A model generated the notes under the pieces. That model was not told where the DNA came from, ran no database searches, and worked only from the letters and a program-made list of their open reading frames with translations. Below, in pieces: positions 40,510-56,600 of a stretch of 64,000 nucleotides of DNA. The translations under genes were made by a program, and so were the position numbers. Position 1 is the stretch's first letter. Every line of letters begins with the position of its first letter. Source of the DNA: an uncultured virus (IMG/VR IMGVR_UViG_3300030095_004072) (Duplodnaviria > Heunggongvirae > Uroviricota > Caudoviricetes > Crassvirales); the IMG/VR virus record IMGVR_UViG_3300030095_004072; one strand, given 5' to 3'.

Positions 40510-41751
40510 TTACAAATCTAATGAATCTCTTTTAAAGTGTGATAGCGTATAATCTTTCTTTTTTACTACAGCTTTGTAGATATCATTTTCAATTCCTTTA
40601 TTACTAAAAATCCAATAAATTTTATTGTACTTTCTATCTTTTGTAGTCATACGATCACGACTTTGAAAGTAGGAAGTAGCACTAAAATCAATATTATAGT
40701 ACACCAAAGCTTCTGCCTCTTTTAAGCTGACGCCTTCTCTTCCTGCAACAATCTGTAATGCTATGCATTTATCAGTAGTTTTAAATTCTTCTAAGTCATT
40801 AGTTAATCCATCACCATATATTTCTTTTAGTGTCTTGTACTCTTGTGTGAATTTATAGAAGATGGCTATTTTTTTATCTTTAAAATATTTTTTTATAAAA
40901 TTTGATTTACTATAATCAACGGTTATGGCATTTCCACTTTCAAATTTTACAGTACCAGAACACAGTTGATGAACTTTTGACATTAACTTAACACCTGTGT
41001 CTCCTAATAATATTTCACCATCTCCTTCAACTACTCTGTCTCTTTTTAATCTTTTAATTAATTTTTTAGTTTGTTCTTCTAACTCTACATATAGTATTTT
41101 TTCTTCTGTCTGTGTTTTAAATCCTGCAGAGCGTTGTGTATAATTGATTTTAAAGGGGTTTACAGCCTCTATAATGGACTTTAATCCTTTTGAATAGTCA
41201 TTAATCATCATGCTGTTAATCTTTCTCTGAGTGACGTTTACATAGGTTTTAGCAAAAGCATAAAAGTTTTTATATTTATAAAAGGGATTGCCAGGAACTC
41301 CATATACTTGATGATACATTTGACTAAATGACTCTGGTGTTGGTGTTCCCGATAAAAATAAAACATTAGGCGTTGATCTTCGTAATATTTCCTTTACTTG
41401 TTTAGCTCTTTTGTTTGGACGTGGAAAAGCTCCTAAAGAATGTGCCTCATCACAAATAACAACATCCCAATTTGTCTGTGGTATTTTATGTAAAGATTCA
41501 TAATTAATTACTTCTAAATAATATGGAGGTTTTAATAAATAAAAATCATGCTCAATACTTGATATAGCTTTTTTCTTTGTAATAAATAAAACATTTTTAG
41601 CATTTAGTTCAGAACAAATTCCTAATGCAGTAAGTGTTTTACCTGTTCTAACTTCCATAGCTAAGTAAACAAAATTACTATAGCCATACATAAATATATT
41701 AGTAGCTTTTTTTATTATCTCTGATTGATAATCTCTAAATTTTAATTCCAT
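40510..41751 (-). CDS. SF2 (SNF2-like) helicase
   Basis: RDYQ, EVRTGKT, DEAH, LSGTP, QSRDR motifs. Confidence 0.85.
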   Translation of the reverse strand: MELKFRDYQSEIIKKATNIFMYGYSNFVYLAMEVRTGKTLTALGICSELNAKNVLFITKKKAISSIEHDFYLLKPPYYLEVINYESLHKIPQTNWDVVICDEAHSLGAFPRPNKRAKQVKEILRRSTPNVLFLSGTPTPESFSQMYHQVYGVPGNPFYKYKNFYAFAKTYVNVTQRKINSMMINDYSKGLKSIIEAVNPFKINYTQRSAGFKTQTEEKILYVELEEQTKKLIKRLKRDRVVEGDGEILLGDTGVKLMSKVHQLCSGTVKFESGNAITVDYSKSNFIKKYFKDKKIAIFYKFTQEYKTLKEIYGDGLTNDLEEFKTTDKCIALQIVAGREGVSLKEAEALVYYNIDFSATSYFQSRDRMTTKDRKYNKIYWIFSNKGIENDIYKAVVKKKDYTLSHFKRDSLDL

Positions 41752-42365
41752 TGTTTTATTATTGCTTTAGCCATACCTTCAAATGTTTTACTTCTTAATT
41801 TTCTACGTTCTTCTGGAGTTTTAGATTTTGCAAGAGCATCTGCATACCACTTAGGATGAGACTTTCCACTTTTGTAGTACACTTTCTCTCCTTTGCCTAC
41901 CATATTTGTAGCAGTAAGTAGTGGTAAGTTTTTTAACCAAAAACAAGTAGATTTAGATGCTTCATCTCCAAACCAATACGGATGTACTATTTGATCAGGC
42001 TTTCTAATTTTAGAACTTATAACGCTTATTGGGTTTTCTACAGCAATTTTATCAATAGGTGCATTCATTAATTTTTTTACAAAATCTAAAGCTTTGTTTT
42101 GATTGCTTAATCTTTCTTGATTAACACTTCCGTCTTTGTTGTACATCCATCTTGCACCACTTACAGCTAAATAAGTACATGGTGGATGAGCTATCATCAT
42201 ATCAAAATTACCACTGTATGCATAAGTTAACGCATCGCCTTTTAAATGCCACTGTGGATTCCCTCCACTGCAATCTAATATGTCACACGAATATGCTTCA
42301 TAACCTTTTTCTCTGTATAAGTTTGTTATTGTTTGCGACTCTTCACAAGCTATTAATATTTTCAT
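41742..42365 (-). CDS. DNA cytosine methyltransferase-like protein
   Basis: AHPPCTYL catalytic-Cys motif and VENP; atypical motif I (ACEES). Confidence 0.7.
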   Translation of the reverse strand: MKILIACEESQTITNLYREKGYEAYSCDILDCSGGNPQWHLKGDALTYAYSGNFDMMIAHPPCTYLAVSGARWMYNKDGSVNQERLSNQNKALDFVKKLMNAPIDKIAVENPISVISSKIRKPDQIVHPYWFGDEASKSTCFWLKNLPLLTATNMVGKGEKVYYKSGKSHPKWYADALAKSKTPEERRKLRSKTFEGMAKAIIKQWN

Positions 42366-46897: not shown

Positions 46898-47307
46898 TTA
46901 ATTTAATTTAATTAGTTTATTTGTGTGATAAGTATATTTTTTCATTATTAAATCTCTCTTAGTTTTTAGATTTTTAATAAACTTATCGTTTTTACGTGTG
47001 TTTACTTCTGTCTTCATCTTATATTGTATAAGATCAACCTTACGTTTACAATTGCTTAAGGCTAACAATCTACAACCTTTTTCCCAACCGTGAGCATAAA
47101 ATATTTGATATTCTTCGTCTGTTAATTCTTGATAATAATCTCCGTTTTTTGAACAATTTAAAATTTCTAATTTACTTGGAAACTTATTGATCTTAACGCC
47201 TAAATTAATCATGCTAATTCCANNNNNNNNNNAATTCCACCGTTTTTATGATAGTATATTGTATCATCTTTTAGAGCTTGATTAAATATATCCTTCTTAC
47301 TGTACAT
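46898..47307 (-). CDS. Hypothetical protein; real start probably 47307 across the N gap
   Basis: Collapsing the AATTCCA duplicated on both sides of the Ns joins MYSKKDIF...NGGIS in frame to MINLGV... Confidence 0.6.
47223..47232. other. Assembly gap (10 N)
   Basis: N run flanked by a 7-bp duplication. Confidence 0.95.
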
Positions 47308-47837: not shown

Positions 47838-48090
47838 ATCTATTTATATATTCTTCGGTTAATGTTTTATTTAATTTATATTTACTCATATCGTTATTTA
47901 TAATTACTCTTTCAAATGCAAGTTGAGGTAATCTACAGGCAGAAACAAATCTATTCTTTATTTCTATATTACCACTGTATTTAAAAAAATCATTAAGATC
48001 AATATGATTTAATCTATTTTTTTTGTTGTGAATTTTTTGTTTTTGAGCAGACTTTAGCTGCTCCACTAAATATTTAGATAGTGATTTCAT
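47812..48090 (-). CDS. Hypothetical protein
   Basis: ORF with AAATTAAATTAAATG leader. Confidence 0.6.
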   Translation of the reverse strand: MKSLSKYLVEQLKSAQKQKIHNKKNRLNHIDLNDFFKYSGNIEIKNRFVSACRLPQLAFERVIINNDMSKYKLNKTLTEEYINRYERNKTKA

Positions 48091-48107
48091 TTAATTTAAT
48101 TTAATTT

Positions 48108-48247
48108 TTATAAGGGAGTAGTTAAGAGTATTAACGTATTGTCGGCTTATGCCTTTATAACCACCCCCTTATAATATAAAGACTAAAACATTTAATATTA
48201 AGGTATCTTACACCTATAAAATTATTGGGATTATTCCCAGTCTTTAT
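48108..48247 (-). ncRNA. Two adjacent candidate structured RNA elements
   Basis: Closing stems of about 17 bp (G-U pairs only on minus strand) and 9 bp; each has an inner hairpin with an AUAA loop. Confidence 0.35.
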
Positions 48248-48374
48248 TCTTGTAGTTGTTTAAAATAATTTGCTTAAGTATGTCTTGATTAAGTTTTTGT
48301 AGCCATTGTATATACCTTATATTTGGCTTTTCTTTTAACTTTTCTTTTAAGATCAACTCGTGAACTTCTTTCAT
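48231..48374 (-). CDS. Small hypothetical protein (47 aa, MKEVHELILKEK...)
   Basis: Read manually; coupled to upstream ORF (TAATG). Confidence 0.5.
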   Translation of the reverse strand: MKEVHELILKEKLKEKPNIRYIQWLQKLNQDILKQIILNNYKNKDWE

Positions 48375-48550
48375 TATATACAAAAGTTTAAAGGACTATT
48401 TTTAAGTTGTTCTCTTTGTTTTTTAGCTTTTCTATTTATATTTTTAAGAGCTGTCTTTTGATATTCTTCTTTAATATATTCGTTCCATTTATTAAAGTTT
48501 AATACTCTGTATTTGTAGTTACCTAATTTTTCTTGATATTCTTTATCCAT
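48374..48550 (-). CDS. Small hypothetical protein (58 aa, MDKEYQEKLG...)
   Basis: Read manually; A-rich leader. Confidence 0.5.
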   Translation of the reverse strand: MDKEYQEKLGNYKYRVLNFNKWNEYIKEEYQKTALKNINRKAKKQREQLKNSPLNFCI

Positions 48551-48575
48551 TATTTAATATTTATATTAATAAAAA

Positions 48576-48639
48576 ACGAGGAAGAAACACGCCATACAGT
48601 TTCTAATTACGTTGTTGATTTCGCCTAACATCAACTCGT
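48576..48639 (-). ncRNA. Candidate three-way-junction RNA element
   Basis: ACGAG/CTCGT closing stem enclosing TTGAT/ATCAA and AGAAAC/GTTTCT hairpins. Confidence 0.3.
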
Positions 48640-48677
48640 GTTTAACAAATCAAATTCGGTTTAAAAATACATAATAA

Positions 48678-49367
48678 TTACTTACCAACCAAATCAAAAT
48701 GTAAAAAGTTTTCTTTTGCCTCAAATGAATAGCTATCACCCCTTACCATTCCAGTTTCATAATTAAATTTATTATAGTCAATTACCTCGTTTGGTATTCT
48801 AAACTCATTTTGTTTTGGTGATAAATGAAGCTCTTTAGGAAAACTATATATGTCACTCGTAAGTCCCTCAGAGTCAAAATACATCTTAATTATATTGTTT
48901 GCATTATCTTGAATTTTATCATAAATTTCACGATTTACAAACTGAGGATCTAAAGTGTCTATATCTGTAATTACTCCATATATATTCTCATCGTATGGAA
49001 TTACTTGAAGAACTTGTGAATTATGCCCATCTGTTATCTTTAAAAAATTATCTGTCATATAATAAAAATGCGTAAAAGGAATATTTTTTAATCTACGTAC
49101 AATATTATTTTTATCGTATTTTAATTCTTGGATAAAACTTTTATGAGCGTGTGCTTCTACCTTTAAAAACTTAAGAGCTTTAGGATAGGTTTTCCAAAAA
49201 TATAAATCTTCACCTTTTTCCCATTCTCTTAGTTTTGAATGTATAAGAGCTTGTTCACTATGCGTATAACCCACACCAACAATTGTTGTAGGTTTTCTTA
49301 ACTTTTCTCTAACTCCATGTGAGCTGCTTTGTGAGTCACATGATACTATTGCTATAAATTTATCCAT
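48678..49367 (-). CDS. Hypothetical protein
   Basis: 229-aa ORF. Confidence 0.7.
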   Translation of the reverse strand: MDKFIAIVSCDSQSSSHGVREKLRKPTTIVGVGYTHSEQALIHSKLREWEKGEDLYFWKTYPKALKFLKVEAHAHKSFIQELKYDKNNIVRRLKNIPFTHFYYMTDNFLKITDGHNSQVLQVIPYDENIYGVITDIDTLDPQFVNREIYDKIQDNANNIIKMYFDSEGLTSDIYSFPKELHLSPKQNEFRIPNEVIDYNKFNYETGMVRGDSYSFEAKENFLHFDLVGK

Positions 49368-49372
49368 GATTT

Positions 49373-49789
49373 TTACTTTCTTACAAAGTTAAGGATATAA
49401 TTTTTATCTATATAATCTTCTATAACCCCGTAAATATTATGATATGATTTAAGACTTTCTTCAGGCATATTACCTGTACAGGTTTTAGCATCACCATGTA
49501 TATCCTCTGTTATTTGTGTAGCTAAATCATCGCAAAACTCCAGAATATCTTCTTTAGTCGTAGTCCCATCTATTTCACGAACTTCAATATCATCCTCATA
49601 TTTTAATCCATGTATAGAACTAACCATGTATTTATTAGGACTTACGTGATCACATAATTTTTCAATCTGTTCTACATCATCTTCGGCTTCCCATCCTTCA
49701 CCAAAGAGCTCATCAGCTTGTTTTTGTAATTCATTTTTATACACAAAATCATTTGTGGACATATATCTGTCAATAGTTATTTTACTCAT
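49373..49789 (-). CDS. Acidic hypothetical protein
   Basis: 138-aa ORF. Confidence 0.65.
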   Translation of the reverse strand: MSKITIDRYMSTNDFVYKNELQKQADELFGEGWEAEDDVEQIEKLCDHVSPNKYMVSSIHGLKYEDDIEVREIDGTTTKEDILEFCDDLATQITEDIHGDAKTCTGNMPEESLKSYHNIYGVIEDYIDKNYILNFVRK

Positions 49790-49968
49790 TTGTTTAATTG
49801 TTTTAATTTATTATTTAATTCATTACTCTTTTGCATTGTCTCCACTGTTTTAACTGGAAAATCTCTCAATTCTTCTTTTATTTTTACTGCTAAACCGTAT
49901 GGTGTTAGATGTCCATCTTCCCACATTTCTATCAGCATTAATATTTGATTTTTAGATTTATTGTTCAT
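49786..49968 (-). CDS. Hypothetical protein
   Basis: 60-aa ORF with ATGA overlap. Confidence 0.55.
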   Translation of the reverse strand: MNNKSKNQILMLIEMWEDGHLTPYGLAVKIKEELRDFPVKTVETMQKSNELNNKLKQLNK

Positions 49969-49977
49969 ATTATTTAT

Positions 49978-50733
49978 TTAAAATGGTAATAAGCTACCTT
50001 CGTATTCCCAAAGCATATTGTCAACTACCTCTTCGCATAACTCTGTTGGTATCTTACTACGTTCGTGATTATTTTTAAGTGATTCCGTACCTCCTTTCTT
50101 AGCATCTATACCTCTCTCTCTAAGCTTCCTAACTGTCTCTCCTCTTTGTGATGCATCGTGATGACAGTGTCTATTTATTATATTACCATCAGCATCGTAC
50201 TTATAATTTTTACATAATGGTTTTGGTTTCCAATTTAAAGCATTAGTCCATATATCAGTTGGCTTCATACGTGAATCACCGTAAGAACAATATGACACAG
50301 TGTGTCTAACGTGTTGAAAATTAGCCCATTCTGGAGACTTTCTCATCTTACCACGTGGATTCTCTATGTACCAAACAAGATTAGGATTTTTCTCTAAATA
50401 TGATGCTATAATCTCTAAGGTTTTGTTTAAAATTTTTATACCTAAGAGCTCAGGATCTCTTGGTTGGTACTCGTGTCCACTTACCCATTTTTTACCTATA
50501 CAAGCTACTGAAAAATCTGTGCAAGGTGGTGATGCCCATATTACATCGGGTATCCAAAGCTTATCTAACTCACCTACATTCATTTCATTAAGTCGGTAGT
50601 CCCAATCTAAAATATCTCCAACCCAATTTGTATTTGGATAGTCTGTATTATCTACAGAAAATACTTCGTGTCCTTTTGCTTCAGCAACCTTTCCAATAGA
50701 ACGGCTACCACTAAATAATTCTAATACTTTCAT
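49978..50733 (-). CDS. DNA cytosine-C5 methyltransferase-like protein
   Basis: VLELFSG motif I, WASPPCT motif IV, IENPRG motif VI. Confidence 0.8.
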   Translation of the reverse strand: MKVLELFSGSRSIGKVAEAKGHEVFSVDNTDYPNTNWVGDILDWDYRLNEMNVGELDKLWIPDVIWASPPCTDFSVACIGKKWVSGHEYQPRDPELLGIKILNKTLEIIASYLEKNPNLVWYIENPRGKMRKSPEWANFQHVRHTVSYCSYGDSRMKPTDIWTNALNWKPKPLCKNYKYDADGNIINRHCHHDASQRGETVRKLRERGIDAKKGGTESLKNNHERSKIPTELCEEVVDNMLWEYEGSLLPF

Positions 50734-50757
50734 TTTTTTATTATTTATTAATTAATT

Positions 50758-50913
50758 TTATTTTTCGTATAAATCATTATTTATACATTCTTCATTTTTA
50801 TCTATCCAAGATTGTTCCATACATTCATTATCACAATATATTCCTCCAAATTTATCTGTAATATATTTATCTAAATCATCATTAAAACAATTTTCACAAT
50901 ATTTATCTTCCAT
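50758..50913 (-). CDS. Small Cys-rich (Zn-finger-like) protein, 51 aa
   Basis: Read manually: MEDKYCENC...YCDNEC. Confidence 0.5.
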   Translation of the reverse strand: MEDKYCENCFNDDLDKYITDKFGGIYCDNECMEQSWIDKNEECINNDLYEK

Positions 50914-50918
50914 TTCAT

Positions 50919-51149
50919 TTAACATAATTTATCGTAATTTAATTCCATATCAGATTGTATGTTTTCTAATAAACTTTCTAATTCATCTTGCACTTCATCA
51001 CCGTGAAGAATTAATTTGTTTATTATAATTTCTTTTCTTGAAGGAGTTAATCTGTCTTCAGACTCTTCTTGTTGATAGAGCTCATAATGAACAACTATAT
51101 TATTGTTTTTTGACAATAAATAGTCGTATGTACTATAGTTTGTTTTCAT
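50919..51149 (-). CDS. Hypothetical protein
   Basis: 76-aa ORF. Confidence 0.55.
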   Translation of the reverse strand: MKTNYSTYDYLLSKNNNIVVHYELYQQEESEDRLTPSRKEIIINKLILHGDEVQDELESLLENIQSDMELNYDKLC

Positions 51150-51230
51150 TTGTAAGTAAATTTAATTAATAACTTTGGTAAAAATACATAATAAATACTT
51201 AATAACCTAATAGAATAGCTTTTAATTTAT

Positions 51231-51296
51231 CGTAAGTCCCTTAGGATCTTTTTGTGTTTTTTTCGTAAGTCCATAGAGCTCGTAAGTCCATAGGAC
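51231..51296. repeat. Three clustered CGTAAGTCC direct repeats
   Basis: Copies at 51231, 51264 and 51281. Confidence 0.9.
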
Positions 51297-51343
51297 AAAA
51301 AAAAGACACGGAATCATATCTTTTTGGATACGAAATCGTGCCT
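51297..51343 (-). terminator. Terminator closing the first early-gene block
   Basis: Minus strand GGCACGATTTCGTATC..GATATGATTCCGTGTC then T8. Confidence 0.6.
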
Positions 51344-51352
51344 TAAATTATT

Positions 51353-51556
51353 TTATGATTTTGACTTGATTAACTCTGCACTGCCTTTTTGAATCATCCA
51401 AAGCAACCAATCTTTGTCAACGTGTCCAACGCAACGGGCAACACCATAATAATATGCGTATCCACTTCCACGTTCCCATTTTATTGTCCAAAAATTATTT
51501 GGAGTAACATCTGTGAATTTAATCACATCATTTTTAACTATCTCTATTTTATTCAT
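51353..51556 (-). CDS. Early hypothetical protein (start re-assigned to MNKIEIV)
   Basis: The track's longer start runs into the hairpin repeat. Confidence 0.55.
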   Translation of the reverse strand: MNKIEIVKNDVIKFTDVTPNNFWTIKWERGSGYAYYYGVARCVGHVDKDWLLWMIQKGSAELIKSKS

Positions 51557-51585
51557 ATGTAATTTTATTAAGGCACTATTGCCCA

Positions 51586-51627
51586 CTACCACCAAATCCC
51601 CACTGCGACTAACAGTGAGGTTGGTGG
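51586..51627 (-). repeat. 42-nt conserved hairpin, copy A
   Basis: CTACCACCAAATCCCCACTGCGACTAACAGTGAGGTTGGTGG. Confidence 0.85.
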
Positions 51628-51644
51628 AACAAAAACAAACAAAA

Positions 51645-52415
51645 TTATTCTTTATTGATATGTTGAGTTATACAATTTAAACTTTCTTGCATATTAGACA
51701 AGCAAGTATTGATGATTGAATTTGGTGGTGATGTTGTCACAATAGATTGACACTCATCAAAATTAGGTATATTAAATTCTTTGTTGATTTCATCGTGAAT
51801 AGTATCTTGGGTTTCAAACTGATGTACATCCTCAAGAATTTTTGCATCAACAAGTTTGTCAACACATCTAATTGCAATATCACGTGTGTCATCATAATCT
51901 TTTAAAGTACCTTTGTCATCTGAATCCATAAATTCTTTACCAAAATAAATTTCATCAATTCTATCGTGCAACTTTCTTTTATCTAACAACAAATCATTGA
52001 CTTGACTATTTAATCTATTAGCACGTTGCACTTCAGATTTAAATTTACTTTTCCACTTCTCAATCTCATATGCACGTGTATCTGTTGATGCAAATAATCT
52101 ACCTAACTCAGTTATTTTATATCCTTCTTTACGACTGCGTGTCAACAATCCTTCATCAACCCATTTTCCCATTGCAACATTATAAAATCCCGTTGAATGA
52201 TGGAAACAAGTATCACCATTTCTATCAAGAAACTCCCAAACTGAATTGGATGTTTTACCAAGAGGTTTATTTTTATGTTCAATCATTTTCTGTGCTTGAC
52301 ATATCATGTGTTGCAACTCTTGTTTTCTAATAATTGGATAACCTTCTTTATTTATATATTGTATGTGAGGCATTCTCATTGCCTTTATCACAAGTTTTTT
52401 TACTGTATTTTTCAT
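51645..52415 (-). CDS. Early protein with winged-helix-like segment
   Basis: WVDEGLLTR...GYKITELGR, then coiled coil. Confidence 0.6.
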   Translation of the reverse strand: MKNTVKKLVIKAMRMPHIQYINKEGYPIIRKQELQHMICQAQKMIEHKNKPLGKTSNSVWEFLDRNGDTCFHHSTGFYNVAMGKWVDEGLLTRSRKEGYKITELGRLFASTDTRAYEIEKWKSKFKSEVQRANRLNSQVNDLLLDKRKLHDRIDEIYFGKEFMDSDDKGTLKDYDDTRDIAIRCVDKLVDAKILEDVHQFETQDTIHDEINKEFNIPNFDECQSIVTTSPPNSIINTCLSNMQESLNCITQHINKE

Positions 52416-52443
52416 TTTATTTAATTTGATTATTATTTGTTTT

Positions 52444-52485
52444 CTACCACGAAATCCCCACTACGATTAGTAGTGAGGCACGTGA
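52444..52485 (-). repeat. 42-nt conserved hairpin, copy B
   Basis: CTACCACGAAATCCCCACTACGATTAGTAGTGAGGCACGTGA. Confidence 0.85.
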
Positions 52486-52505
52486 AAATTTCTTATGATC
52501 AAAAT

Positions 52506-53159
52506 TTATTTTCGGCTATCATCTAAAGTTTTCCAACTATCTAAAAGATTCTTAACTCTTGCAATTTGTTCAAAATCACGTGCATCTCTGACTTGTTCTA
52601 ACAAAGTTTCTAAAGCTAATATCATTACACTATTTTCAGAATCATTTAAATAACAGTGTGTTTTATTATTGGTTTGAAAAAATTTATTTGAATGTTTATA
52701 CTCTCCAAAGTGAAACAAATCATCTGTGTCAGATAGTTTATCACCATTAGGTATTCCATCTATTTGTGGAGTGTCCTCTTCACGTTCAAGTCTTTCTGTC
52801 TCAGTCTCAAATTGTGATTGATATTCATCAGAATTTTTATGTAGTCTATCTTCAATATCAGAAGGTAAATGTGGGTACATTGCATCATTCTTACCTACCC
52901 AATCTGAATCAGTTAGTGCTGATATAACTACACGTTTCATTTGATTTTGAATTGATTCTTTAATTTTTCTACCATCAGTAAATAGCATTGGAATGTCTTC
53001 AAGAAATTCTAACTCTGTACAATCATCCCAACTATCTTGTGTTTGTGACATATAACATTGTGTTCTTACTGTGTCAATCATTTGTGCAAATGATACATCA
53101 ACTGCTTTGTCAACTGCATCACTTAAATTACTAACTGTGTACTTATCTTTATTATTCAT
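52506..53159 (-). CDS. Acidic early hypothetical protein
   Basis: 217-aa ORF. Confidence 0.7.
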   Translation of the reverse strand: MNNKDKYTVSNLSDAVDKAVDVSFAQMIDTVRTQCYMSQTQDSWDDCTELEFLEDIPMLFTDGRKIKESIQNQMKRVVISALTDSDWVGKNDAMYPHLPSDIEDRLHKNSDEYQSQFETETERLEREEDTPQIDGIPNGDKLSDTDDLFHFGEYKHSNKFFQTNNKTHCYLNDSENSVMILALETLLEQVRDARDFEQIARVKNLLDSWKTLDDSRK

Positions 53160-53192
53160 ATTGTTTGTTTTTAATTTTGGAGGATTAGTCCT

Positions 53193-53234
53193 CTACCACG
53201 AAAACCCCAATGCGATTAGCATTGAGGCACGTGG
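53193..53234 (-). repeat. 42-nt conserved hairpin, copy C
   Basis: CTACCACGAAAACCCCAATGCGATTAGCATTGAGGCACGTGG. Confidence 0.85.
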
Positions 53235-53246
53235 AGTAAGTTGGTT

Positions 53247-53924
53247 TTACTTAACTAAATTCCAATAAGCAATCTCTTTATTGTAATAGTTTTTTAGTTG
53301 TGCAATACTTACAAACTTGTTTCTGTATTGGGCATCTTGAGTTGAGAAACTACCATCAACATTCTCTACAACATTACCACTATGCATCCAATAATTGAAA
53401 TACATTTCTTCATCTTGATAGTTGCTTAACACCTTTTGCATTTCTTGTTCATCTCTGTTGTTGTCATCACAGAATCCTTGAATCAATGCACGTTTGTTAC
53501 CATTGTCTGCGTAGCTGAATGATGAATCAATATCACCCTCAAATAATGATGACATAAAACTACCACCCATTTGTTTACAGTCTTTGATTACATCTGCATT
53601 ACCTTTCCATAATTCTTTGAGTGCGTGAGTCAGTTGACGAGTAGCAATACCGTCACCAAATTTTGCTATCCATAATATCTGACTGAATGCTGTGTATGGA
53701 TTACCTATTTTATTTTGAGTACGGCAAGTATCAAGTCTAATGTTAAATGCTTGACAATATTTGAAATATAGTACAACTTGTACCTTATCATTACACTCTA
53801 ATTTAGTAGAAACCTTGTCTAACATTGTAATACTAAAGTCTGCGTTTAAATACTGATTACTCCATTGTGATACGATATCAGATGATTTCTGATTCGTAAG
53901 TCCGATTAACGATTTTGTGTTCAT
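53247..53924 (-). CDS. First early hypothetical protein
   Basis: 225-aa ORF downstream of a full -33/-7 promoter. Confidence 0.7.
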   Translation of the reverse strand: MNTKSLIGLTNQKSSDIVSQWSNQYLNADFSITMLDKVSTKLECNDKVQVVLYFKYCQAFNIRLDTCRTQNKIGNPYTAFSQILWIAKFGDGIATRQLTHALKELWKGNADVIKDCKQMGGSFMSSLFEGDIDSSFSYADNGNKRALIQGFCDDNNRDEQEMQKVLSNYQDEEMYFNYWMHSGNVVENVDGSFSTQDAQYRNKFVSIAQLKNYYNKEIAYWNLVK

Positions 53925-53970
53925 TTTGGTTGTTTTTTAAGTGAGATATTACTCTCTGTTATTATTAATA

Positions 53971-54006
53971 TAAAGATACTAAATACTTAATAAATAAGCA
54001 AATATA
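53971..54006 (-). promoter_or_regulatory. Bacteroidota-type early promoter (TTTG-N20-TATCTTTA)
   Basis: CAAA at 53999-54002 and TAAAGATA at 53971-53978 on plus; second TATATTTG box at 53999-54006. Confidence 0.65.
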
Positions 54007-54466
54007 TTGATATCGGATTTTTTTTGGGTTGATTCTGGATTTTGATATTTAGAGGTGTTTAATGCGTTCTAAAGGACTATCTTTTTCTTTTAATGTATTA
54101 GTATTAATAAAATAATTAAAGTTCTCTAATAAGATATTGATAGTGAATATTTTGTGTGATGTTTGTCAGTGTGATTTGTTTAGTGTGTGAGTGTGTCGGA
54201 CTGTCGTTAAGGGAAGTCTCTTTCCCTCTCTTCTACTTTGCAAGTGAGTAAGGGTAGGTGGAGCTCCGATTTGAGTTAATGCGTTAGAACGCATCATATA
54301 TATGTCTGTGCGTACGTGAGTGGGCAGTGCGTGTGCGTGTGGGGTGAAAGTAAAAGACAAAAAATTCCACAAAAATCAAAACAAAATACAACCCCCCCCA
54401 ATAAAAAAACTCCGTTTCCGTAAGCAGTAGTTATGCGTATAAGTATGTAGAACCCTCAACCCCTAA
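54007..54466. other. Non-coding divergence region, candidate genome end/packaging region
   Basis: GT-rich then AC-rich halves and a C8 run, between divergent gene blocks. Confidence 0.4.
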
Positions 54467-54508
54467 ATGTCTAATAAAAATTTATTATCTTTACAAAAAA
54501 ATCATACT

Positions 54509-54706
54509 ATGAACAATAACTATCAAGGCCTAACTATAAAAGATGGTCGCTTAATAAATGAACGCCCAGATGCTGTGTCAGGTATTGAGAGAGCGTCAAT
54601 GATGAGACAACAAATGAAAAAACAATATAAGATAGACTGTATCGCTGACGGTATTGAAAGAGCTAAGATGCGTATGGATGGTGATCGTAATATATACGAA
54701 TACTAA
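54509..54706 (+). CDS. Small hypothetical protein (start re-assigned to MNNNYQG)
   Basis: TATCTTTA box at 54486-54493 lies upstream of ATG 54509; terminator follows. Confidence 0.6.
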   Translation: MNNNYQGLTIKDGRLINERPDAVSGIERASMMRQQMKKQYKIDCIADGIERAKMRMDGDRNIYEY

Positions 54707-54733
54707 AAAAAATTAATTTGTTTGTTTGTAATT

Positions 54734-54757
54734 AGAGGAGCTTAGTCTCCTCTTTTT
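54734..54757 (+). terminator. Intrinsic terminator
   Basis: AGAGGAG-CTTAGT-CTCCTCT then TTTT. Confidence 0.75.
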
Positions 54758-54782
54758 ATTTATAGTCTGGACTACAACCAGA

Positions 54783-54960
54783 GATATTCCAAAGATATTC
54801 CAAAACAAAAATTTTGTAACTTTTTGATTTCTAACTATTTATCTTATTATTCTTTATTTATTCCATACTTAGGTACGTTAAAAAGAAATAATATATAATA
54901 ATATATATATATAAAAAATATAAAACCACTAATACCAAAAAAAACTTTGGACTATGGAAT
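54783..54960. promoter_or_regulatory. Iteron/IHF-box/AT-rich element, copy 2 (origin-like)
   Basis: GATATTCCAAA x2, TAACTTTTTGATT, TATTCCATA, AT tract, inverted TATGGAAT. Confidence 0.55.
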
Positions 54961-54982
54961 GTAATTTATTATAATTATTTAT

Positions 54983-54990
54983 TATATTTG
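54983..54990 (+). promoter_or_regulatory. -7 box TATATTTG for groEL
   Basis: Matches TAnnTTTG. Confidence 0.65.
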
Positions 54991-55010
54991 TTAAAATTAA
55001 ATTTAATAAA

Positions 55011-56600
55011 ATGGAACAAGGTTATATACCAAAGACGCTTAGCTTTGATGATGAAGCTCGTCAAAAATTAATTACAGGAATCACTAAAATTTCAAAAGCA
55101 GTTAAAAGTACATTAGGTCCTTTGGGCAAGACTGTTTTGTTAGAATCACCAAATCATACTTCAGGCATGACAGTTACTAAGGACGGTGTAACAGTTGCTG
55201 AGTCTGTGTTTTTAAATGATCCTATAGAGAACTTAGCAGTTAGGATGATGAAGGAAGCATCAAGTCGTACAGCTCAGTCTGCGGGTGATGGTACAACAAC
55301 TGCTATTGTTTTAACTGAGGCCTTAGTTAAAGCTGGTCAGCAGACATTAACATCAGAGTCAAACACAACAGAAGTAATTAGGTATATAAATGAACACACA
55401 GCTGTTATTATAGATGGTTTGCAAACTGCTTCTAAAAAAGTTACAGAAGAAAGGTTATTAGATGTTGCTTCTATTTCAGCTAATAATGATAAGACAATAG
55501 GTAAGATAATTAAAGATGCGTATACTCAAGTTGGGATAAACGGTATGGTAACTGTAGAGAAGTCTATGACAGCACAAACATATGCTGAGGTTACTAACGG
55601 TATTAAGATTGCCAGGGGTTGGTCATCAAATCTATTTATTAATAGTCAAAAGAAAGATGAGTGTATACTTGAAGATGTTAAGATTTTAGTTTGCGATGCA
55701 GAAATTAATAGCATACTTCAAATAGAGAACGTGTTAAAGCCTGTAATAAACAACGGAGACAAACTTTTAATCATTGCCCCTTGCTCAACTAATGTTATAA
55801 ATACTTTAGCGGCTAACGTAGTTCGTAACGGTTTAAAGTTTTGTAATATAGCTCCTCCACAGTTTGGATACAAGCAACATGAGCTTATGCAAGATATCGC
55901 TATGTCAGTTGGTGCTAAATACTATTCAGAGAAGACTGGTGATGATTTAAGTTTAATTATGCCTAATGACTTAGGTAGTGCAGATAAAGTTATTGTAGGT
56001 GAGCATTCAACTGTAATTTTTAAAAAGGATAATACAACACCAGAGTTAAACGATAGAATTGCTGAGTTAAAAATACAACAGAAAAACTCAAAAGATAAAT
56101 CAAATAATGAATTTATAAAAGAACGTATAGCAAGTTTAGCGGGTGCTATAGGCTGTATTTATGTTGGAGGTAACTCTGAGATAGAACAAAAAGAAAAGTA
56201 TGACAGAGTAGATGATTCAGTATGTGCAGTACGATCAGCACTTGAAGAAGGTATATTAGCAGGTGGAGGTATAGCTCTGTTTAGAGAATCAATGATGTTA
56301 AGAGCTGAAACTAAAAATCAAGATGAGAAAGATGCAGTCTTAATCTTAGAGGCTGCACTACGTTCACCTCTTATTCAAATATTAGACAATGCAGGAAAGA
56401 ATAGAGAGAAAGTTGTAGAACAATTATATGACAAAAAATATAATTATGGATACGATGTTAAGAATAACAAGTATGGTGATATGTATAAGTTGGGTGTTAT
56501 TGATCCTCTTAAGGTAACAAAGAACGCACTGACTAATGCAGTAAGTGTAGCAACAACTATACTTAGCACAAACGCTATAGTAACAAACATGAGGGCATGA
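55011..56600 (+). CDS. groEL: Phage-encoded group I chaperonin GroEL
   Basis: TLGPLG, VTKDGVTVA, AGDGTTTA, GVIDPLKVT; no C-terminal GGM tail. Confidence 0.97.
   Translation: MEQGYIPKTLSFDDEARQKLITGITKISKAVKSTLGPLGKTVLLESPNHTSGMTVTKDGVTVAESVFLNDPIENLAVRMMKEASSRTAQSAGDGTTTAIVLTEALVKAGQQTLTSESNTTEVIRYINEHTAVIIDGLQTASKKVTEERLLDVASISANNDKTIGKIIKDAYTQVGINGMVTVEKSMTAQTYAEVTNGIKIARGWSSNLFINSQKKDECILEDVKILVCDAEINSILQIENVLKPVINNGDKLLIIAPCSTNVINTLAANVVRNGLKFCNIAPPQFGYKQHELMQDIAMSVGAKYYSEKTGDDLSLIMPNDLGSADKVIVGEHSTVIFKKDNTTPELNDRIAELKIQQKNSKDKSNNEFIKERIASLAGAIGCIYVGGNSEIEQKEKYDRVDDSVCAVRSALEEGILAGGGIALFRESMMLRAETKNQDEKDAVLILEAALRSPLIQILDNAGKNREKVVEQLYDKKYNYGYDVKNNKYGDMYKLGVIDPLKVTKNALTNAVSVATTILSTNAIVTNMRA

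Follow-up and report, generated by a model that had tools for sequence, protein, structure and literature searches.

A repeated intergenic hairpin in phage early operons, best read as a transcript-punctuation signal

Why does a phage carry the same 42-nt hairpin in each gap between consecutive early genes, does the repeat act as RNA or as DNA, and what does it do there? The question is raised by a stretch of 64,000 nucleotides (the window) from an uncultured virus of the Crassvirales (IMG/VR record IMGVR_UViG_3300030095_004072). The window holds most of a phage genome of about 64 kb that is of Flavobacteriia type and encodes GroEL, with phage-family matches to a terminase, a virion protein, GroEL/GroES, a primase-helicase, Erf and an exonuclease. 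Judged by GroEL, its closest relatives are an uncultured record (56%) and Flavobacterium phages (37–38%). A Shine-Dalgarno-like word precedes 2 of the 42 long ORFs, and several promoter-like sites have the layout that we take to be the Bacteroidota −33/−7 consensus; because of these two properties, the host is probably a member of the Flavobacteriia. No tRNA was found in the window, and ten N bases at 47223–47232 mark an assembly gap.

One hairpin in every gap of a putative early operon

The hairpins lie on the minus strand of a leftward arm that reads P1, four ORFs of 225, 217, 256 and 67 aa, a hairpin with a U8 tract, and P2. This layout suggests that the four genes are early and form one transcription unit. 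In the direction of transcription, the features are as follows.

53971–54002, minus strand: promoter-like site P1, TTTG-N20-TATCTTTA, with the Bacteroidota-type −33/−7 layout
53247–53924, minus strand: first early ORF, 225 aa, no assigned function
53193–53234, minus strand: hairpin copy 1, with a lower helix, a 1x3 loop, a CCUC/GGGG helix with a U-G wobble, and tail UUUUCGUGGUAG
53180–53193, minus strand: small accessory hairpin directly after copy 1 (from folding)
52506–53159, minus strand: second early ORF, 217 aa (154–271 aa in relatives), no assigned function
52444–52485, minus strand: hairpin copy 2, with a 2x4 internal loop and tail AUUUCGUGGUAG
51645–52415, minus strand: third early ORF, 256 aa, weak match to a PHROG transcription-regulator family (E 0.004)
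51586–51627, minus strand: hairpin copy 3, with a 2-nt bulge and tail AUUUGGUGGUAG
51571–51584, minus strand: small accessory hairpin after copy 3 (centroid fold)
51353–51556, minus strand: fourth early ORF, 67 aa from its ATG
51297–51342, minus strand: ordinary terminator-like hairpin with U8, ending the four-gene unit (from folding; missed by a simple terminator scan)
51179–51210, minus strand: promoter-like site P2, where transcription would restart

The fourth ORF had been listed as 80 aa from a TTG start, which would overlap hairpin copy 3. Promoter-like patterns occur at 54002, 51210, 49387 and 48693, none of them inside the three hairpin spacers, and ordinary U-tract terminators are present elsewhere in this phage. 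Profile searches with the early proteins gave no family above the cut-off, and the first and third early genes, used as queries, each returned three close relatives.

Some further features of the arm were observed. The promoter-like sites at 53971–54002, 51179–51210 and 48662–48693 resemble one another, and their −7 box ends in TTTA instead of TTTG. The word TCGTAAGTCC occurs three times between the terminator-like hairpin and P2 (51230, 51263 and 51280; region 51230–51289); the copies are possible operator sites, and similar words occur in loci L017 and L019. Two methyltransferase-like ORFs lie in the leftward arm (41742–42365 and 49978–50733), the second of which matches PHROG DNA methyltransferases.

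The first-pass annotation had described three ungapped 42-nt copies, one in each gap of the first four early genes, with three covarying base pairs, and all of this was borne out. The copies at 51586, 52444 and 53193 share 33, 33 and 36 of 42 bases pairwise and separate the ORFs of 225, 217, 256 and 67 aa; the next best ungapped match to them on either strand of the window reaches at most 23 of 42. Pair 8/38 reads C-G, G-C and G-C, pair 18/30 reads C-G, C-G and A-T, and pair 20/28 reads G-C, A-T and G-C. A covariance model found only these three copies in the window, at 42.7–48.2 bits with the next match at 12.2, the copies having been in the model seed. In all three copies the minus strand folds more stably than the plus strand (−19.0 to −23.5 versus −14.5 to −17.7 kcal/mol), with a z score of −4.8 to −6.5 and none of 200 shuffles as good.

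The proposed anatomy needed more revision. Two stems separated by an internal loop describe copies 1 and 2, and the interruption in the copy at 51586 is a 2-nt bulge. The UA(A/G)UC terminal loop, named as a feature, is not shared across the family described below, whose loops include GAAA, UAAC, UUCG and CAAAAC. The conserved 3' GUGGUAG holds as GUGGUA, the base after it being variable. The absence of a U tail is correct for the element as a whole, and a short WUUU tract does follow the upper helix.

A widespread family under selection as RNA

The hairpin belongs to a family with the consensus R-CCUC-(variable stem-loop)-GGGG-WUUU-(G/C/U)-GUGGUA. Exact-pattern scans gave 16 and at least 124 stretches in IMG/VR and at least 119 in metagenomes, and a relaxed rule applied to viral and metagenome loci gave at least 189 distinct members. 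The CCUC/GGGG helix is present in 161 of the 189, with the variants CCCC/GGGG, GCUC/GGGC, CCUU/GAGG and GCUG/CGGC. Across these members, which have a median of 16 bp, the tail reads WUUU, then G (137), C (30) or U (22), then GUGGUA; 32 of them are followed by a second small hairpin. Since the search patterns demanded the tail, its conservation was rechecked in two sets chosen without it: among the 27 CCUC/GGGG hairpins on the sense strand of the window and 80 GroEL-selected loci, 23 carry it, and GUGGUA is kept in 15 of 16 members that follow capsid genes.

In an alignment of 67 members, 96.4% of the cells pair, the U-G is kept in 64 members, and double-sided changes occur in 51 cells against 11.6 in shuffles that ignore relatedness. 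In an anchored count of 84 members, in which pairs 1–2 had been filtered to pair, inner pairs 3, 4 and 5 form in 93, 79 and 92% of members versus 42, 39 and 63% when shuffled, and the sense strand folds lower in 81 of the 84. The lower helix covaries at the S position, pairing better with a member's own flank than with the S-base-swapped one in two counts (17 of 23 members and 66 of 72); along the tail, pairing dips at U2–U3 and is 0.8–0.9 at S5–G8. Both helices thus covary, and the selection apparent on the lower helix supports a structure that would extend over the full length of the RNA. That selection acts at the RNA level, as first suggested from the three copies, is supported by the sense-strand folding, the kept U-G and the covariation across the family.

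No Rfam 15 family reached its gathering threshold in a scan of the window (0 hits); at E ≤ 10, the region 48000–55100 gave four weak hits, one of which (PsrR1, 20 versus 42 bits) overlaps copy 1. The papers listed for the motif string have unrelated titles, and the part of the PMC10690425 supplements that was searched gave no match; as far as we have looked the family is uncatalogued, and the rest of those supplements or that of PMC5737381 may hold it. Presumed resemblances to Chi sites, attC, the Mini-III ACCU site and T-box-like UGGN pairing with tRNA ends were set aside.

Members are widespread between genes in aquatic, mutually unrelated phages. Among the cores with enough flank, 91 of 97 passed a fold check; three cores lie within a same-strand ORF. 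In 71 of 85 the distance back to a stop codon is at most 33 nt, and in 77 of 85 an ATG follows within 48 nt. A covariance model, R1, matched 58 times at 19 bits or more across the window and 80 GroEL loci; many of these matches were its own seed, and all lie on the sense strand of the early arm. Of the 53 loci that include 6 kb or more of this arm, 25 have a match. In L065 and L086 the hairpin is in a leader, with a promoter-like site about 90 nt before it. In a second context, the hairpin immediately follows an HK97-type capsid gene (14 neighbours). A third comprises a short-stem group with upper helices of 6–7 bp, in phages that use Shine-Dalgarno words (before 32 of 56 ORFs, versus 2 of 42 in the window) and that probably infect another host phylum. 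The short-stem members L107, L118, L128, L130, L133, L158, L176, L189 and L211 have 44–50% GC and a conserved stretch upstream.

Among 50,697 records of cultured phages, blastn queries with four natural variants gave no convincing member. In 596 Gb of genomes, 88 pattern matches were found, mostly chance as judged by eye, and true-looking copies are present in five host assemblies (L222, L264, L286, L289 and L295). In L222:2500-2915, a Mucilaginibacter assembly, a prophage-like operon has an 83-aa gene with one copy on either side, and an integrase-like ORF adjoins. Seven of 121 Flavobacteriaceae genomes (50 candidates scored per genome) matched at 25–29 bits, all of them tail-only, coding or terminator matches. 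The hairpin is thus nearly absent from host chromosomes. It has no dedicated partner gene, 169 neighbours falling into 104 families; an ArdC-like anti-restriction gene is among the early genes flanked by hairpins.

The first-pass annotation had added that the repeats might promote swapping of early-gene cassettes, and exchange does occur near them. In L019, homology is lost from the first ATG up to the stop codon that precedes copy 1, an unrelated 121-aa ORF replacing the 225-aa first ORF with the leader intact; L070, L015 and L009 are chimeric, with a copy-3-type upstream flank joined to a copy-1-type body. It is, however, highly improbable that the hairpin is primarily a DNA element for cassette exchange, whether PeSL- or attC-like. 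G-U rather than C-A is kept in a strand-specific manner, the element stands as a single copy after conserved capsid genes, and among five complete relatives with one to three copies each it occurs once per genome in two. In L017, an extra 99-aa gene is flanked by a duplicated translation-start stretch near the accessory hairpin at 51571–51584, so that the insertion is bounded by this downstream stretch and not by the hairpin. PeSLs are defined, in the part of PMC2839356 consulted, by a promoter within the repeated cassette, and the three hairpin spacers contain no promoter-like pattern. Those of the T4-like phages RB49 and phi1, as described there, are likewise repeated intergenic stem-loops of a variable early region with gene exchange nearby, but the present hairpin has an unrelated sequence, no internal promoter, often one copy, and selection on the RNA strand. 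Cassette swapping near the repeats therefore looks secondary, a side effect.

Interchange with hammerheads and tRNA-like modules

If the hairpin acts in RNA, its substitutes at equivalent positions may indicate its role. The early-arm spacers of 53 relatives also contain, as judged from folding, hammerhead cores, T-loop hairpins and three unnamed hairpin types. Across 796 early-arm spacers of 48 genomes, with modules labelled by regular expressions, no spacer holds both the hairpin (37) and a hammerhead (31) or a T-arm (22), although 8 of the 48 genomes carry both hairpin and hammerhead; a plain V hairpin shares spacers with all three. Type I hammerheads pass the Rfam gathering threshold in L031 and L034, and type III hammerheads in L058, L073 and L077 lie below it (E 2.5e-7 to 2.4e-5).

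One orthologous junction was followed closely. Thirty loci have a homologue of an early gene of about 313 aa, and dropping three duplicates left 27 distinct spacers. Each of the 27 holds exactly one module: a type III hammerhead pattern in 21, a tRNA-like T-arm in 4 and the hairpin in 2. In a scan of 17 of the 30 loci, Hammerhead_3 (RF00008) matched 8 of 11 pattern-positive loci at E ≤ 0.001, with 35–47.5 bits against a gathering threshold of 48.5. For L067 and L058, both flanking genes are homologous (54% identity; 30% over 56 aa, E 1e-4). Three of the four T-arm modules fold with a closing stem of 6–7 bp, two of them with the T-arm itself in the minimum-free-energy structure. In a tree of the roughly 313-aa gene (26 rows, four loci left out as duplicates or a fragment), the two hairpin carriers are not sisters, and a single origin is not rejected (p-AU 0.139).

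Several neighbouring modules were recorded in passing. About 20 type III hammerheads in L311–L339 fall just under Rfam gathering and have a probable loop-loop pseudoknot; L311 has the core CUGAUGU. tRNA-like modules lie between early genes in L324:2345-2400, L327:2378-2430, L336:2425-2495, L026, L031, L032 and L050; these consist of a closing stem and a T-arm with its T-loop, without an anticodon arm, and are probably substrates of RNase P or RNase Z. The early arm of L043 (five copies), L030 and L038 have a repeated element of about 60 nt, AAGCGGAG...CUCCGCUCUAA, with two inner hairpins; it lies between early genes, alternates with type I hammerheads, has no Rfam match and is a candidate cleavage module. 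A palindromic hairpin, GUGUCUUCAAAGACAC, that frequently lies immediately before a type III hammerhead (L058, L060, L066, L067, L073, L077–L079, L090, L310–L339), could be a 3' shield or a DNA operator. In L051–L055, L061, L063 and L074, a 7-bp hairpin capped by GAAA or GCAA occupies most first early gaps, in spacers of 41–50 nt.

Hammerheads that flank single phage genes cleave, and have been proposed to cut long transcripts into gene-length RNAs (PMC3088659, in the part consulted). These phage and prophage hammerheads (RF00008, RF00163) resemble our hairpin in flanking single early genes and in occupying the same orthologous spacer; the anti-restriction neighbour is ardA in that account and ArdC-like here. 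The hairpin itself, by comparison, is a simple interrupted hairpin with neither the CUGANGA and GAAA core nor the three-way junction of a hammerhead.

Does the hairpin then cleave itself? A minimal ribozyme acting without the host, with a core made of the U-G helix, the UUU loop and the GUGGUA strand and a dispensable distal stem-loop, would be a new and very small protein-independent self-cleaving class, or at least a host-independent cleavage signal, interchangeable with hammerheads across host phyla and used in early and capsid messages. The hairpin stands where hammerheads stand and shares early operons with them, its distal stem varies in length and is often capped by GAAA or UUCG, and its core stays the same in hosts that differ in their translation signals. 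It was a gene context in common that pointed to twister, twister sister, pistol and hatchet (PMC6765202, as far as consulted). We nevertheless consider self-cleavage improbable: the conserved bases are almost all on the 3' strand and in one helix, the 5' partner strand varying freely, the loop has no pseudoknot partner, no Rfam ribozyme matches, and the tRNA-like modules at the same junction indicate that enzyme-cut signals serve there too.

A probable site for cutting or stopping the transcript

In our preferred reading, to which we give a probability of about one half, the hairpin is a cis-acting mRNA processing site cut by a host endoribonuclease. This is favoured because the hairpin, hammerheads and tRNA-like T-arms interchange at one orthologous junction, because the hairpin avoids the spacers of the other two although some genomes carry both hairpin and hammerhead, and because the lower helix is under selection, members occur in leaders, and U-tract terminators are found elsewhere in the phage. 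In the transcript from P1, each spacer would fold into an irregular hairpin of about 16 bp, which the host enzyme would cut on its 3' side, in or beside the WUUU loop; for RNase III, the cut is predicted after WUUU-S or one base earlier. Cleavage would break up the polycistronic early RNA into messages of one gene each; the upper helix would stay on the upstream product and shield its 3' end, and the downstream product would begin just before an A-rich translation start. A processing or stabilizing element was among the roles first proposed; it is the best reading, with new support from the positional interchange, and that support does not extend to RNase III specifically.

RNase III is the leading candidate enzyme, tentatively, because the anatomy resembles that of the T7 early hairpins; a single-strand nuclease (RNase E/G or Y) is the other, less likely candidate. 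The T7 sites, which we take to be those named R0.3, R0.5, R1, R1.1 and R1.3 with their customary cut position, also occur once per early gap, with an upper helix of 9–10 bp, a 3'-side loop and a lower helix. T7 intergenic hairpin sequences were taken from NC_001604 and the register was fixed from part of PMC1540722, set by R1.1. Our hairpin shares the T7 early type of layout: it lies between the genes of a presumed polycistronic early RNA and has two helices and a loop on the 3' side. In register, both have U-G, C-G, R-Y, C-G and W-W pairs and the 3' strand AGUGG-SS-UUU; the U-G and C-G are middle-box pairs in the terms of PMC1540722. Unlike in T7, C-G stands for G-C at two pairs, the loop lies higher by one base and the proximal box is poorly paired; the hairpin also occurs after capsid genes and in short-stem forms, and model R1 does not match the T7 sites.

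The pair-by-pair comparison is similarly mixed. Of 84 members, 79 have the middle-box U-G and all have the C-G, and none has G-C or C-G at proximal-box position 2 (position D), which is partly forced by the search pattern; C is there in 3 of the 189 relaxed members. The proximal-box series G-C, A-U, A-U, A-U is absent, its first pair (pb1) being C-G in 84 of 84, and pairing reaches 28 of 84 at position C (pb3) and 61 of 84 at position D. About 11 bp are asked for between cut and terminal loop (PMC1540722, in the part consulted); the CCUC..GGGG hairpin has 8–11 bp in 172 of 189 members and 6–7 bp in 17, and the three pairs below it are often unpaired. A half-site score was built from pair counts obtained in vivo for E. 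coli RNase III (PMC6212723, Table S4). Seven T7 hairpins score 2.7–4.9 with it, and at the T7-homologous register the family is on a par with random stems, the 84 members having a median of −1.24, the 47th percentile of such stems. Their best registers are −1 and −3 (means 1.4 and 1.3), one base off corresponding to about the 90th percentile; three T7 hairpins likewise score best one base off, and the outcome is ambiguous overall.

RNase III is present in 41 of 41 Flavobacteriaceae genomes. In the Bacteroidota enzymes (L523–L557; 27 loci read), all 24 parsed sequences carry Ile or Val where the dsRBD motif LQE has Gln, the motif itself reading (L/F/I/V)IEW or VEW. The E. coli rules may therefore not carry over. 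The Gln probably corresponds to Aquifex Q157, a residue discussed in PMC1540722, and the B. subtilis rules resemble those of E. coli (PMC11780869, in the part consulted). An argument specific to Bacteroidota RNase III is weakened because the same core occurs in Shine-Dalgarno-using phages. Two further points count against RNase III: the near-invariant tail is stricter than this enzyme usually needs, and the pre-rRNA stems of four Flavobacteriaceae genomes are A-U-rich and unlike the hairpin.

Against processing in general, only 2 of the 27 junction spacers carry the swap, with one origin not rejected, and after capsid genes the hairpin alternates with terminators and not with ribozymes. Forty-four of 48 HK97-type capsid loci have an intact 3' end and yield 35 distinct spacers, of which 16 hold the hairpin, 4 a U-tract terminator, 6 U-less hairpins or other structures and 9 no hairpin; no hammerhead was seen by eye in their first 100 nt. 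Since this alternation fits a partial stop as well as a cut, it is the main support for a hairpin-stabilized pause or leaky intrinsic terminator, an option missing from the first-pass annotation that the capsid-gene context supports and that we regard as the main rival, though a less likely one. RNA polymerase would pause with the RNA 3' end at the last U of GGGG-WUUU-S-G-U, just before the next G, so that the variable 5-bp stem ends at −12. CCUC would then pair into the hybrid, the complementary 5' flank would zip on, and a fraction of transcripts would be released; expression would be graded along the operon, and the capsid mRNA would gain a protected 3' end.

The elemental pause consensus is G-11 G-10 ... 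G-2 Y-1 G+1, and the tail fits it at a fixed distance from the helix. Geometry and bases agree in most members, the bases being part of the search pattern, but the short-stem members misfit and could not form a pause hairpin at −12. In the part of PMC11685472 consulted, Bacteroides RNA polymerase obeys this consensus, and some pause hairpins extend to −11/−10/−9 as an escape duplex. The same core in Shine-Dalgarno-using phages points to a universal factor, and the 6–7-bp short forms suit a terminator. On the other hand, the U tract is 3–4 nt long, begins with A in 43 of 189 members and is followed by G-rich bases; the hairpin takes the place of self-cleaving modules at one early junction, is found in leaders just behind promoter-like sites, and occurs three times in a row before a proper terminator. 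With its WUUU-S-GUG tail, it falls short of the five U in 8 nt expected after an intrinsic-terminator hairpin and is absent from the terminator scan. Intrinsic terminators, his-type pauses and Bacteroides opsX (PMC11685472) share a G-C-rich helix followed by U's and a pause-like tail, and differ from the hairpin in its GUGGUA after the short U tract, its covarying lower helix and its repetition in each gap.

A strict tail could also load an antitermination or RNA-binding factor, in the manner of nut, put or ops, for read-through of the early terminator. The tail is strict in sets not chosen by it (the 23 of 27 hairpins of the GroEL loci and the 16 capsid-gene members), GGUGGUAG resembles the RfaH ops word, and the elements lie upstream of the window terminator. 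Such loading is nonetheless very improbable: the eighth tail base is free, no flanking gene family travels with the hairpin, and these sites normally occur once per leader, not once per gap. HK022 put RNA consists of two adjacent stem-loops in the leader that modify RNA polymerase, as against a second small hairpin in only 32 of 189 members here, and the put-like antitermination proposed at first found no positive support. The ops/opsX non-template hairpin, in the forms GCGGTAGC or YGCGNAGCR given in the consulted part of PMC11685472, is absent from the family tails.

On the sequence evidence, the hairpin most likely marks where a long mRNA is cut or stopped, and a signal that punctuates the transcript is its best reading. 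Systems of this kind are known; the hairpin family and its interchange with ribozymes appear to be new. The in vivo role of bacterial and phage self-cleaving ribozymes is still open (PMC6765202, in the part consulted). One orthologous spacer that holds three alternative modules is in this respect a natural experiment, suggesting that what is needed there is an RNA break or boundary, whatever makes it. Should an enzyme cut it, the hairpin would establish a nuclease signal for Bacteroidota, a group in which a conserved recognition residue is missing from RNase III; should it be a terminator, it would be of a U-poor type. Either way, it may offer a compact part for operon tuning in Flavobacteria.
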